Source of the DNA: Octopus sinensis | Taxonomy: Eukaryota | Direction: 5' to 3' | Assembly: GCF_006345805.1 (NCBI RefSeq) | Contig: NW_021827271.1 | Location: forward strand, 1-10,822 | DNA: 10,822 nt | Shown here: positions 1,964 through 9,230 of the stretch, piece after piece | How positions within the stretch are numbered: the stretch's first letter is position 1 | How the letters are laid out: the number at the start of each line of letters is the position of its first letter | Made by a program: the position numbers and the translations under genes | Notes under the pieces: model-generated | Seen by the model: only the letters and a program-made list of their open reading frames with translations | The model's database searches: none | Told to the model about the DNA's origin: nothing

Positions 1964-2183
1964 TACATTATTTACCTTATTTACAATTGACGGATATTTG
2001 TCCTCATCTTGTTTGTTCGAACCTAGGAATGAGAACCTAGGTTCGAAATTTCTCCAAGACACCTGACGAAGGCTGGAGGGTATATCAGCAGAAACGTTGT
2101 GTTAACAACGAACAAGATGAGGACAAATATCCGTCAAACGTAAATAATGTACATAATTCCTCGTCTCTTAAATATAGAACTGT
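1964..2183 (+). mobile_element. Fold-back Penelope-like pseudo-LTR fragment containing a hammerhead motif
   Basis: Inverted arms 1987-2017 and 2107-2137 match at 30/31 and enclose a hammerhead core. An inverted truncated terminal repeat plus a minimal hammerhead is the known architecture of Penelope-like element ends. Confidence 0.7.
2058..2103 (+). ncRNA. Minimal type I hammerhead ribozyme motif (HHR-1)
   Basis: Stem I gacac/gtgtt; core CTGACGA (2063-2069) plus an extra A; stem II ggctg/cagca with a G-A mismatch at the base; GAAA (2091-2094); palindromic ACGT stem III; predicted GUU cleavage after 2098. Confidence 0.75.
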
Positions 2184-2195
2184 AATATATATTAA

Positions 2196-2360
2196 TTCGT
2201 CGCCTGTCTTTACGTTCTGAGTTCAAATTCCGCTGAGGTCGACTTTGTCTTTCATCCTTTCTGGATCGATAAATTAAGTATCAGTTGTGTACTGGGGTCG
2301 ATCTAATTGACTGGCACCCTTCCCAAAAATATCGGGCCTTGTGCCTAGAGTAGAAAAGAA
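2196..2360 (+). mobile_element. SINE family B, 5'-truncated copy 2
   Basis: Colinear with 1791-1956, with the same truncation point (attaattcgtc) and the same tail; roughly 20 differences by eye. Confidence 0.85.
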
Positions 2361-2408
2361 CATTTATTAATACACATGTTGAGAAATAAAATAATCAATT
2401 TAAACAAT

Positions 2409-2800
2409 GGATGGAAGCACTCCGTCGGTTACGACGATGAGGGTTCCGGTTGATCCGAATCAACGGAACAGCCTGCTCGTGAAATTAACGTGTAAGTGGC
2501 TGAGCACTCCACAGACACGTGTACCCTTAACGTAGTCCTCAGGGGAGATTCAGTGTGACACAGAGAGTGACAAGGCCGGCCCTTTGAAATACAGGTACAA
2601 CAGAAACAGGAAGTAAGAGTGAGAGAAAGTTGTGGTGAAAGAGTACAGCAGGGATCACCACCATCCCCTGCCGGTGCCTCGTGGAGCTTTTTTAGGTGTT
2701 TTCGCTCAATAAACACTCACAACGCCCAGTCTGGGAATCGAAACCGCGATCCTATGACCGCGAGTCCGCTGCCCTAACCACTGGGCTATTGCGCCTCCAC
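2409..2800 (-). mobile_element. tRNA-derived SINE family C, full length, 13-bp TSD
   Basis: Minus-strand head gtggaggcgcaatagcccagtggttaggg...ggtttcgattccc (A and B boxes). TSD caatttaaacaat at 2396-2408 and 2801-2813. Near-identical copy at 3314-3698. Confidence 0.93.
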
Positions 2801-3313
2801 CAATTTAAACAATACACTACCAATAAAATGTGCTCCTTAAGAACTATGAGTTAATGAGTGCGTCATGAGTTCTGGCCTACCTTGTATACCTATTGGAGCC
2901 GTTCTTTGATGTATTGTATTTACCTTACTTGTCTGTCTCCGATAACCTCAGCAATTCAATCTCTTACGTAAACTACTTTTCTATCTCCCTTCTTTGACAG
3001 TTCTGGCTCTTCTCCTTCGTTCCTTCCACTTTAGATTCTCACCTTCTCACATCAGTCTTCCTGGCGAATTAACCAACCACCAAATCAACCCCGCAATTTC
3101 TGTTAAACTCAATTTGTTTTTCATCCTAAAAAAACTGGGTCAGACGTAACAAGACGTTTATATTTTAAAACCACCCGTCCTTTGTAAGATTCTATTCACG
3201 AATTTTTCACGTCGGAAACCAGTTTCCAGGCTTCACTTAATTGTAATATTAAATTAATGAAGGTATTTTAATGAAACAATAACTTAATGCCGAATTCGGA
3301 ATCCTATATGTAG

Positions 3314-3698
3314 TGGAAGCACTCCGTCGGTTACGACGACGAGGGTTCCGGTTGATCCGATCAACGGAACAGCCTGCTCGTGAAATTAACGTGTAAGTGG
3401 CTGAGCACTCCACAGACACGTGTACCCTTAACGTAGTTCTCGGGGATATTCAGCGTGACACAGAGAGTGACAAGGTCGGCCCTTTGAAGTACAGGTACAA
3501 CAGAAACAGGAAGTAAGAGTGAGAGAAGTTGTGTGGTGAAAGAGTACAGCAGGATCACCACCATCCCCTGCCGGAAGCCTCGTGGAGCTTTAGGTGTTTT
3601 CGCTCAATAAACACTCACAACGCCCGGTCTGGGAATCGAAACCGCGATCCTATGACCGCGAGTCCGCTGCCCTAACCACTGGGCCATTGCGCCTGCAC
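3314..3698 (-). mobile_element. tRNA-derived SINE family C, full length, 11-bp TSD
   Basis: Aligns end to end with 2412-2800. TSD cctatatgtag at 3303-3313 and 3699-3709. Confidence 0.93.
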
Positions 3699-3829
3699 CC
3701 TATATGTAGAACCCGTGGTTAACATTATTATGGTTCGCTACTGAACCGACTGCCAAAAATATATACACAGATAAAAACATGGAGGCCTAAAAGTCTGGAT
3801 TCGCAGATAAATTTATTTAAATGTCCAAA

Positions 3830-4190
3830 TTTTCAACCAATCCCGGTGATCTGACAATTTCTGACAATTTCTGACTCCGTTGAAATATCTGACCTTTGAC
3901 CCCATGCAGCGTATTTCTGCAGAAGTTATCACGAGTGAATAAGACTTCCTCCTTGAGGGCATCGATATTTCTTAGTCGATTCACGCAGACAACTGACCCC
4001 AGATGACCCTCAACGCAGAAAGAAAGAAAAAAAGAAGACATTTCGAGGTGTCAGTGTTGTTGCAGACCTGGATGGCCATCCAACTTGACTTTGTCTCCCG
4101 AAAGACAATCCTGGAAATGTGTCACTTCAAAGACACCCCAAATACCAAAATGTGGTGAGCACAGTTTGGTTGGCACCGTCTTTGGCATCG
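3830..4190 (-). pseudogene. Decayed Tc1/mariner-superfamily transposase, C-terminal catalytic fragment
   Basis: Across frameshifts the minus strand gives DGA (4172-4180), FPGLSFGRQSQVGWPSRS (WPSRS at 4064-4078) and GHLGSVVCVNRLRNIDALKEE. This matches the QQDGA..H / FPGRWIGR..WPPRSPDLTPxDFFLWGYLKSxVYxNxPxTIxxLK pattern of these transposases. Confidence 0.72.
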
Positions 4191-4292
4191 CGACGAAGAA
4201 AATAAAAGTTTACATTCTTCTGTAAAAAATATGGAAGTATTAATTTTTTGATCAAATATCTTTCTCCAAACTATAATTCTGAGATCAGACGT

Positions 4293-7142: not shown

Positions 7143-7534
7143 CATCTTTATCCTTCTCTGGTTTCAGTCATGTGACTGCGGCCATGCTGGAGCACCGCCT
7201 TTAATCGGACAAACCGATCCCAGGATTTATATTTTAAGCTTCTATCGATTTCTTTCGCTGAACCGCTATATTTTGAGGATGTAAACAAACCAACACCGAT
7301 GGCCAAGTCGTAGTGAAGGACAGCTACAAATTCAAACACACACACACACACATACACACACACACATATCCGATAGACTTCTTCCAGTTTCCGTCTGCCA
7401 GATCCACTCACAAGGCTTTGATTGGCCCGAGGCTATAGTAGGAGACACTTGCCCGAGGTGCCACGCTTTGGGATTGAACCCGGTACCATGTGGTTGCGAA
7501 TCAAACTTCTTCCCGCGCAGCCACGCATGCGCCT
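7143..7534 (-). mobile_element. SINE family A, uninterrupted diverged copy
   Basis: Reverse complement aligns with 732-898 plus 1401-1641 (e.g. cagtttccgtc..ccactcacaaggcttt..gcccgaggctatagtag; tttcagtcatgtgactg.ggccatgctg), with an internal (CA)n at ~7337-7367. Confidence 0.9.
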
Positions 7535-7679
7535 ATGAGTAAACAAAAGAGGAGACAAATCACACATCGACAGTAAGGATAACGAAATGGGGTGGTTGTG
7601 GGGGAATGTAAACCTGGGGGGGGGGGATGGAATTCATGGTCGTAGTGGTGGAAGACTAAAGGGGAAAGGACGAGTGAGG

Positions 7680-7755
7680 GTTGTTATTTAGCCCTGGGTC
7701 AAACCTGATTGAGAAGCTCTATGTGATCAAAGGCGTTTTAGCCGTGACTATCTCA
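7680..7755 (-). mobile_element. Probable short 3' remnant of a retroposon
   Basis: Minus strand ...cctttgatcacatagagcttctcaatcaggtttgacccagggctaaataacaa resembles, from memory, a cephalopod SINE/LINE tail ending in (AAC)n. There is no second copy here to confirm it. Confidence 0.4.
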
Positions 7756-8046
7756 TCTGCATCTGTAGGATTATAGTACCCGATTTCGTCTTCGGTTGCC
7801 TTTTATAGCATGTTGATCGGGCGCGTACAGGCTCTCCTGTAGTCCTGTGGTTGTACAAGCCCCTAGATTTGCTCCCTGTCCTGTGGTTGTAGCATAATGG
7901 TGGGTGAGAATCGGTTAATTGTTTGGCTAATGGGACTTTACGTGCCTCCAATCTTTCGCACCACAAACATCGCTGTTCCGAACCGGTGCCCGTCACGGTG
8001 GCGTTCCTATAACCCCAAACAACACATTACTGCAACTTGCATCTGC

Positions 8047-8325
8047 GACTACTACTACTACTACTACTACTACTACTACTACTACTACCACCACGTCACG
8101 GCGGCTGATGTGTTAACATCAACCACAACCGGGTCTTTTACCACCACCACCACCACAAGCACCACCACCACTACCACCACCACCACCACCACCATCACCA
8201 CCACCACCACCACCACCACCACCACCAACACCAACACCACCACCACCACCAACACCACCAACACCAACACCACCACCAACACCCCCCCACCACCACCACC
8301 ATATCACCCACAGCCACCACCACCG
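8047..8325. repeat. (TAC)n then (CAC/CAA)n trinucleotide repeats
   Basis: TAC run at ~8047-8088 and ACC-rich run at ~8120-8325; explains the poly-Tyr/Thr/Pro/Val/Gly ORFs. Confidence 0.93.
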
Positions 8326-8494
8326 TCGCCGCCGCACTTCCCTTCCCCTCCGTTGCGGTGCCACGCCTACAATCAGTGTTGAACTGTGACGACATAAAGT
8401 TTAGCCCGCCATAAATAGGAGTGACGTGATGTGACAGGGGAATCTAACTGCGGGGGTGTGTATATGCGTGTGTATATATATATGCGACAGTGTG

Positions 8495-8688
8495 TGTACC
8501 GTTGTACTTTTTCCTCCGTCTTCCCTTCCTTGGATCTTTCCTTTTCCTATATTTATGACGAAGAGCTCCGCTGGAAACGTTTAATCCTCCTTCTTTCTTT
8601 CCAATACTGAGCGTCCAATAACACTATACTTGTTCCACGTCCTCGCGCTGTTGTGTTTTGTTTTTGTGTTTTCATGTTTGAATTAACT
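8495..8688 (+). mobile_element. Penelope-like pseudo-LTR fragment with a degenerate hammerhead, between microsatellites
   Basis: Pyrimidine-rich ~190 bp island between (TG/TA) tracts, containing tgacgaagagctccgctggaaacgtt. Confidence 0.55.
8551..8585 (+). ncRNA. Degenerate minimal hammerhead motif (HHR-3)
   Basis: attt-aTGACGA-a-gagc-tcc-gctg-GAAA-CG-TT-taat. Same layout as HHR-1, but with the core C3 replaced by A, a mismatch at the base of stem II and one stem I mismatch. Confidence 0.55.
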
Positions 8689-8722
8689 ATATATATATGC
8701 GTATATATATATATATATATAT
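8688..8722. repeat. (TA)n microsatellite
   Basis: Directly visible. Confidence 0.9.
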
Positions 8723-9230
8723 TATATTAAATTAGAGATAAAACCACTATTAGGCAAATCAACAATGAAAAACTTAAGCCAATATATAAGATTAATTAAT
8801 TTATATTATTTAATTATATATCAAATTATTAAAAAAGATAATAATATAACACTACGATCGTTTCATGGCTGTTCAATTCTTTAAAATTTTCGAGTTTACA
8901 GTCATTCTTCAGGTGGTTTACATATCTAAAATATAATCAATATTTTTTAGATATAAATAATATGTATAATATAATAATTTTACTTATAATAAACTCTATT
9001 ATCAAATATGATTATATCAAAATCGACTATAATGTTAAATATTAATTTTAATTTATAAGGTAGGAAACCCATAATCTATATCAATATTAGTCATATATAA
9101 TTACATAAATATTTAAATGACTAATAATATATAAATTATCAATGAAAATATATATATAAATATTATTACAAGATCTAAAATAATCTCTATAAATAATTGT
9201 ATATAATAAAAACCTAATAAATTTAATATT
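8723..9230 (-). mobile_element. Very AT-rich Penelope-like pseudo-LTR fragment with a hammerhead
   Basis: Contains HHR-4 on the minus strand; bounded by (TA)n on the left and (TG)n on the right. Boundaries are inferred from composition. Confidence 0.55.
8847..8920 (-). ncRNA. Type I hammerhead ribozyme motif with intact core (HHR-4)
   Basis: Minus strand: cac-CUGAAGA (8912-8906), stem II augacugu/acagccau (7 of 8 pairs, 25-nt loop), GAAA (8864-8861), CGAUCG-UA, gug. Stem III is the palindrome ACGAUCGU; GUA triplet with predicted cleavage between 8853 and 8852. Confidence 0.8.

Follow-up and report, generated by a model that had tools for sequence, protein, structure and literature searches.

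Hammerhead ribozymes at the ends of Penelope-like elements (PLEs) are a known arrangement. Reported features include an additional base that separates A9 from G10.1, single motifs derived from truncated PLEs and pairs of motifs on opposite strands (PMC4209133). PLE insertions are also known for arms that are inverted head to head, for a 3′ tail that may be present on one of the arms and for (TA)n neighbours (PMC8557442), and the tail has been explained by two internal start sites for reverse transcription on uncleaved RNA (PMC11167929). Palindromes and initiator-like sites are known at the 5′ ends of their pseudo-long terminal repeats (pLTRs), as are solo pLTRs (PMC3846280), and an internal promoter has been described (PMC2377424). 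Octopus PLEs have been catalogued, with no mention of ribozymes in the portion of that work available (PMC13282606). Here we analyse four hammerhead motifs (H1 to H4) in a contig of Octopus sinensis (NW_021827271.1, assembly GCF_006345805.1), the whole of which, 10,822 nucleotides (nt) of a 2.72-Gb genome, is referred to as the window; it is dense in microsatellites and short repeats. We consider it probable (about 85%) that the motifs are the hammerhead-bearing 3′ ends, or pLTRs, of truncated and decaying copies of four protein-coding PLE families from three clades, which is mostly known biology. The four families were likely inserted by their own reverse transcriptase (RT) and GIY-YIG endonuclease.

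Each motif belongs to a multi-copy family (families 1 to 4, after H1 to H4) whose typical copy has the full motif, and the four are therefore not chance matches. DNA searches of the genome, with 40 candidates scored per family, returned 5,017, 1,268, 1,831 and 2,200 first-look candidates for families 1 to 4, respectively. The typical copy in all four is an intact minimal type I hammerhead with a CUGANGA/GAA/UH core and stems I-III. Exact core patterns matched 1,999 places for family 1 (35 nt) and 1,779 for family 3 (30 nt), with none for the reversed patterns used as controls. The pieces in the window are 86-95% identical to the 3′ ends of longer copies that contain PLE coding sequence. The original prediction of PLE-type minimal hammerheads in abundant families mobilised by PLEs is borne out.

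It had also been proposed that these were separate short non-coding families, or retrozymes. This did not hold, as in all four families the longer copies have PLE coding sequence on their upstream side, and few tandem arrays are seen. The repeat is linked to both RT and GIY-YIG sequence in families 1, 2 and 4, and to a GIY-YIG endonuclease alone in family 3; copies linked to this coding sequence are called open reading frame (ORF)-linked below. Clades were assigned using motifs given in PMC8557442 rather than a tree with reference PLEs. An element of family 4 (locus L065) has the order pLTR-RT-GIY-YIG-pLTR, in which the two 1.17-kb repeats are 96% alike and each carries the H4 motif; its RT and GIY-YIG are frameshifted. 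A sister copy (L159) has an open frame of 859 amino acids (aa) with DKT, KWK, CxCX5C, CxxC and CxH motifs, of which all but KWK are marks of the Hydra clade (PMC8557442). The nearest Atlas clusters to this protein carry PF26215/PF01541 at 0.96-0.98. The marks of the Hydra clade (the CxCX5C linker, CxxC/CxH, DKT and no CCHH) are found in families 2 and 4. Family 2 runs into an endonuclease of the family 4 type in three copies (L211, L204 and L212) of the 18 non-palindromic ones fetched, 12 of which were examined upstream, and one copy (L369) also matches further into the Hydra protein, in RT-thumb sequence.

Family 3 runs into a Neptune-type CX4CxxC linker and GIY-YIG endonuclease (L237/L368). 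A second such copy, 62% identical in aa sequence, has the same ribozyme block 2.9 kb further on, with flanks that are only 68% alike. For family 1, 30 loci were chosen by the end of the ORF; 25 of these extend into a tRNA-like segment, and the ribozyme part is reached in 22. The ORF is Poseidon-like, with an RT match to PF00078 (E=2.5e-11) in a long copy (L300) and an Atlas match to PF26215 at 0.97.

Several observations weigh against assigning all four motifs to protein-coding PLEs. No full-length element was present among the copies of families 1, 2 and 3 found, the longest family 1 copies being about 1.6 kb of broken ORF, and the coding link of family 3 consists of two loci with endonuclease only. 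Moreover, a local Pfam search, in a version without PF26215, missed the Hydra proteins and the endonucleases of families 1 and 3, and the clade assignment comes from motifs only. The 5′ ends of families 1 and 3 pile up more sharply than random truncation yields, and four copies lie in 10.8 kb where a rough density estimate predicts 0.25. Extension of a further locus (L223) reached no coding sequence. In 30 Neptune-like loci and 30 loci with GIY-YIG (PF01541) matches, families 1-3 were not the elements' own ends; the links came through long copies.

The features of the window are listed in the following table. As noted earlier, it holds no PLE coding sequence, none being found by tblastn with two PLE proteins of this genome.

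Table 1. Hammerhead motifs and PLE-derived pieces in the window.
Feature	Position	Strand	Details
Hammerhead H1	2059..2102	+	CUGACGA core 2063-2069, GAAA 2091-2094, GUU triplet ends 2098
Hammerhead H2	4770-4718	-	CUGAUGA core 4770-4764, G12 4732, H17 4718
Hammerhead H3	8551..8585	+	Decayed; core 8555-8561 is AUGACGA (C3>A at 8555)
Hammerhead H4	8850..8915	-	Intact (8912-8853); CUGAAGA core 8912-8906, GUA
Family 1 (Penelope/Poseidon-like PLE) 3′ end, 5′-truncated, ~30-nt tail	2024..2182	+	91-92% to ORF-linked L281 and L367
Family 1 second arm, inverted, tail-less, head-to-head	1964..2017	-	
Family 2 (Hydra-clade PLE) arm with H2, tail-less	4678..4781	-	90% to ORF-linked L369
Family 2 second arm, long tail, truncated within loop II, no CUGANGA	4782..4902	+	90% to L369
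Family 3 (Neptune-like PLE), pLTR-length copy	8482..8688	+	89-91% to top copies, 86% to endonuclease-linked L368
(TA)n tract common to the 3′ ends of families 3 and 4 (tail to tail)	8689..8720		
Family 4 (Hydra-clade PLE) 3′ end, 5′-truncated inside 1.17-kb pLTR, tail-less	8721..9230	-	93-94% to both L065 pLTRs

The four motifs had been described as CUGANGA hammerheads with a closing stem I, in unrelated elements. Motifs are present where the stem III strings given imply, but H3 departs from the description: besides its altered core, comparison with other family copies shows G·G as the first pair of its stem II and U·U as that of its stem I. H1 has a stem I of ACAC/GUGU, a stem III of ACGU, a stem II at 2071-2090 and the extra A at 2070, with a predicted cut after 2098; its first stem II pair is a G10.1·A11.1 mismatch where the family form is G-C. 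H2, whose core lies on the minus arm of a palindromic locus, has a single mismatch in stem II. H4 (stem II AUG/CAU, stem III ACGAUCGU, stem I CAC/GUG) is the only intact motif, and the only match in the window to a motif descriptor, which also yielded one match in 5 of 100 shuffled windows. None of the 49 Rfam matches in the window at E<=10 was a hammerhead, and Rfam therefore does not detect these minimal forms. The distance from cleavage site to 3′ end is 84 nt for H1, ~107 for H3 and ~130 for H4, in agreement with the predicted range of roughly 85-130 nt; for H2 it had been measured on the plus arm, which lacks the CUGANGA half. The elements are indeed unrelated at the DNA level, but families 2 and 4 share one PLE clade.

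Better conservation of the ribozyme core than of its flanks had been set as a check. Within family 1 this was not seen: in 37 copies chosen without using the core, 17/339 core positions (5.0%) were changed compared with 5.1-6.8% in the flanks, and no stem covariation was measurable within the family. Such a lack of conservation is expected of copies that decay after insertion. Between subfamilies of the Hydra clade, by contrast, conservation is evident from compensatory changes. Stem III alternates between the perfect palindromes ACGAUCGU and ACAAUUGU, and the 10.1-11.1 pair alternates between A-U and U-A. Taken together, drift of the core within family 1 and compensatory change between Hydra subfamilies point to selection acting on source copies and not on inserted ones.

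The arrangement of copies was examined in 93 family 1 arms, taken from the first 90 exact-core places on one contig (C1). Of these arms, 56 have an inverted partner upstream. In 44 scored pairs the ~30-nt tail was found on one arm in 32, on both in 1 and on neither in 11. By inspection, families 2 and 4 have the same two 3′ ends, tailed or tail-less, whereas no inverted arm was found in 30 family 3 loci. Considering whether the two arms of an insertion derive from one template, identity was 0.921 versus 0.911 (18/28, p=0.07). A head-to-head sister of family 1 (L141:200-390) shares both ribozyme flanks and has a different stem II.

The 3′ part of family 1 consists of a stop codon, ~40 nt, a 74-nt tRNA-like segment, (AAT/AAC)n and the ribozyme. 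The segment contains A and B boxes of the RNA polymerase III (Pol III) type 33 nt apart and aligns end to end with RF00005 at only 12 bits, as weakly as the head of a control short interspersed element (SINE; 13.7 bits). Against 15 distinct tRNAs of this genome it scores 52.5, where shuffles score 27.4±3.3 (maximum 42 of 300). ARAGORN found no tRNA in nine family 1 loci, and an Rfam search over 321 nt missed the tRNA-like head. Copies end preferentially at this segment: among sense arms that reach it, 25/32 end within -13..+3 of its start, as do 22/26 inverted arms within -19..+6. The density of 5′ ends there is 4.6% per nt, versus 0.2-0.8% elsewhere, and the five arms that pass -90 all extend beyond -400. 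Conversely, 28 of 30 loci chosen by the tRNA-like head extend into the ribozyme part. The segment likely marks the start of the family 1 terminal repeat, and it might also be the family's own promoter.

These data raise the possibility, which we regard as tentative, that the short copies of family 1 form a SINE-like sub-element, as an addition to the PLE origin and not a replacement for it. Pol III would start at the tRNA-derived segment, and the resulting RNA of ~270 nt, containing both ribozyme and RT start sites, would be copied in trans by the PLE protein. The boxes and the tRNA score fit such an origin, a Pol III start would explain the pile-up of ends, and the extension of head-selected loci into the ribozyme part is likewise consistent with it. 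There are also precedents in the tRNA-derived Sm-alpha with its hammerhead (PMC2770079) and in tRNA-like promoters within LTRs (PMC10886601). However, an equal pile-up in family 3 lies where there are no Pol III boxes, and 26 of the 29 copies aligned (reference copy excluded) end within -12..+16 of one point. Its 5′ point is an initiator-like sequence within a small hairpin; the 5′ point of family 1 is also a hairpin, onto which many junctions fold back, and palindromes are among the known features of pLTR 5′ ends noted above (PMC3846280). Moreover, when 45 short arms were compared with 20 long, ORF-linked arms, both sets being biased to young copies, no diagnostic differences were found beyond the fold-back junction, nor was there a clear age gap (median 0.049-0.058 versus 0.058, p=0.26-0.29). 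The short form thus shares with SINEs a tRNA-derived A/B-box head and copies that start at the head, but not a lineage of its own. Among the sequencing runs listed as containing family 1 none was of RNA; three RNA-seq runs from a species that holds the family contained reads in both mate directions with no common start or end of the molecule, and are silent on short Pol III RNAs. A reading of family 1 as a free SINE was rejected because of the ORF-linked copies. With similar reserve, we suggest that a Poseidon-like PLE may have captured a tRNA-derived Pol III promoter at its pLTR edge and spawned a ribozyme-bearing SINE-like RNA inserted by its own RT, in other words a Penelope-dependent SINE still attached to its parent.

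A more general alternative, that all these are non-LTR retrozymes or independent non-coding mini-elements whose tandem units self-cleave to circular RNA and borrow the RT of PLEs, is improbable. In its favour, the ribozymes are of the minimal type I with a palindromic stem III, families 1 and 3 consist mainly of unit-length copies, one family 3 locus (L052) is a head-to-tail dimer, and retrozymes have themselves been proposed to derive from pLTRs (bioRxiv 2026.07.22.740005). Yet all four families are collinear with PLE coding sequence, and their copies neither end at the cleavage site nor show circular permutation. Pairs on the same strand and no more than 700 nt apart, sought as the expected tandem arrays, occur at only 2/90 family 1 loci and 1/30 family 3 loci; as such pairs are rare, the definition of retrozymes (bioRxiv 2026.07.22.740005) does not apply. 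No back-joint was among the best-supported joints listed for three standard RNA-seq runs, libraries that are unsuited to circular RNA. In families 2 and 4 the retrozyme explanation is already mostly refuted. Part of the short-element idea survives for families 1 and 3, as their copies are mostly of pLTR length with sharp 5′ ends and may amplify as short RNAs. It is more improbable still that the four clustered motifs serve a separate function, for example in cutting one host transcript. Such an idea could draw on the excess of copies: rough densities, from 5, 3, 13 and 3 hits in 0.8-1.15 Mb of sequence flanking loci that were retrieved for other families, correspond to ~7,000-31,000 copies per family, and 0.25 copies would be expected in the window. 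However, the motifs lie on two strands, three of the four copies have damage at key pairs, a single (TA)n tract is common to H3 and H4, and the window is full of other repeats and was chosen after the fact from a 2.7-Gb genome. The co-occurrence of the four is explained by the abundance of the families and their shared (TA)n or AT-rich targets.

The preferred explanation, decayed 3′ ends of four PLE families, suggests the following route of insertion. By extrapolation from other PLEs, the endonuclease would nick AT-rich DNA. Reverse transcription would begin at either of two internal sites lying 85-130 nt 3′ of an uncut ribozyme and would usually stop early; the presence or absence of a tail would follow from the two alternative start sites. 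By analogy, we infer that cleavage by the ribozyme requires dimerisation via the palindromic stem III, or the help of a protein, and that it may trim a tandem precursor RNA. The ribozyme would be kept by selection on active source copies and decay once inserted. Most copies of families 1 and 3 that reach a fixed, hairpin-marked point stop there, this being likely the 5′ edge of the pLTR, which in family 1 is the captured tRNA-derived segment.

Further PLE-related sequences were encountered. A young and abundant Neptune-like PLE (L130-L139, L163, L164; e.g. C10:91414500-91424400) has a 784-aa open frame, 4.4-kb tandem units and a ribozyme with a UUGAAAA core variant and ACCGGU as its palindromic stem III; a tail of ~30 nt is optional. 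A second Neptune-like family (L171, L172, L181) has a UUGAUAA core and ACAUGU. One locus (L231:1150-1505) joins the start of a Neptune-type ORF to a family 3 pLTR at the common 5′ boundary of that family, and is an internally deleted or template-switched copy; the family 3 copy in the window has its 5′ end at the same boundary. ORFs of the Hydra clade (L159:3985-6564, L160:4045-6291) have RT and endonuclease separated by a long stretch rich in asparagine, similar to the N-rich inserts of rotifer PLEs (PMC3846280). At least eight more hammerhead families with different stems were seen in flanks (L005, L032, L039, L043, L047, L104, L125, L147, L158, L168), and the genome therefore has many more PLE ribozyme families than four.

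The remainder of the window contains ordinary short repeats. A repeat family with a tRNA-derived head is present at 2412-2800 and 3312-3706 (minus strand), another repeat at 729-898 and 7368-7537, and a third at 930-1140, 1778-1950 and 2183-2360, two copies of which flank the family 1 insertion. A 550-bp repeat at 5060-5613 lies between long (ATT/ATC)n tracts and also breaks family 1 microsatellites elsewhere (L074, L087). On the minus strand of 9530-10822 are broken frames that we take to resemble the RT of long interspersed elements (LINEs), although a Pfam search with two fragments at 9913-10273 gave no match.

As four PLE ends, the locus is an ordinary finding, in a genome where PLE hammerheads of three clades number in the tens of thousands. 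The natural compensatory variants can help to address why the ribozyme is retained. If the tRNA segment were a working promoter, the step by which an autonomous PLE gives rise to a short non-autonomous element could be traced in family 1, and a Penelope-dependent SINE would be a model for the origin of Sm-alpha-like elements and retrozymes. Neither a report of a tRNA-headed PLE repeat nor the four families as such were found in the literature searched, a search that did not cover Repbase and Dfam.

The closest described ribozymes are the minimal PLE hammerheads of Cervera and De la Pena (2014, PMC4209133), which are of the same type I with a short stem I and a palindromic stem III. They share the unpaired base between A9 and G10.1 with families 1 and 3, and they too occur as opposite-strand pairs and mostly as single motifs, so there is no difference of principle. 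Families 2 and 4 resemble the Hydra-clade PLEs of Craig et al. (2021, PMC8557442) in DKT, CxCX5C, CxxC and CxH, the lack of CCHH, the canonical ribozyme and the (TA)n neighbours. They differ in the family 4 unit of ~4.9 kb, compared with 'generally <3 kb', in tails of ~65-75 nt rather than 30-40, and in KWK in place of RWK. Family 3 is like Neptune PLEs in its CX4CxxC linker before a GIY-YIG with CCHH-type cysteines, its long microsatellite-rich 3′ untranslated region and its (TA)n ends, but it has a canonical CUGANGA core, where the two other Neptune-like families here have UUGANAA, and it lacks inverted arms in the loci sampled. Family 1 compares best with PAc, the Penelope/Poseidon element of the anole (Frangieh et al. 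2024, PMC11167929), in which RT is followed by GIY-YIG without a zinc linker and the ribozyme lies ~85 nt from the end with an optional ~30-nt tail; unlike PAc, it has the tRNA-derived segment and (AAT/AAC)n between stop codon and ribozyme. Non-LTR retrozymes (PMC7229834; bioRxiv 2026.07.22.740005) are likewise short hammerhead units related to pLTRs, but are defined by the tandem arrays that are rare here. A tRNA-derived head of the Pol III type is known from the Sm-alpha/Sj-alpha elements of schistosomes, joined to a hammerhead in Sm-alpha (PMC2770079), and from TRIMp3 (Helenus, Cassandra), within the terminal repeat (PMC10886601). In family 1, by contrast, this head is part of a protein-coding PLE, within its 3′ end; the PLE can still be recognised in the genome, and its copies have the tails and head-to-head arms of a PLE.

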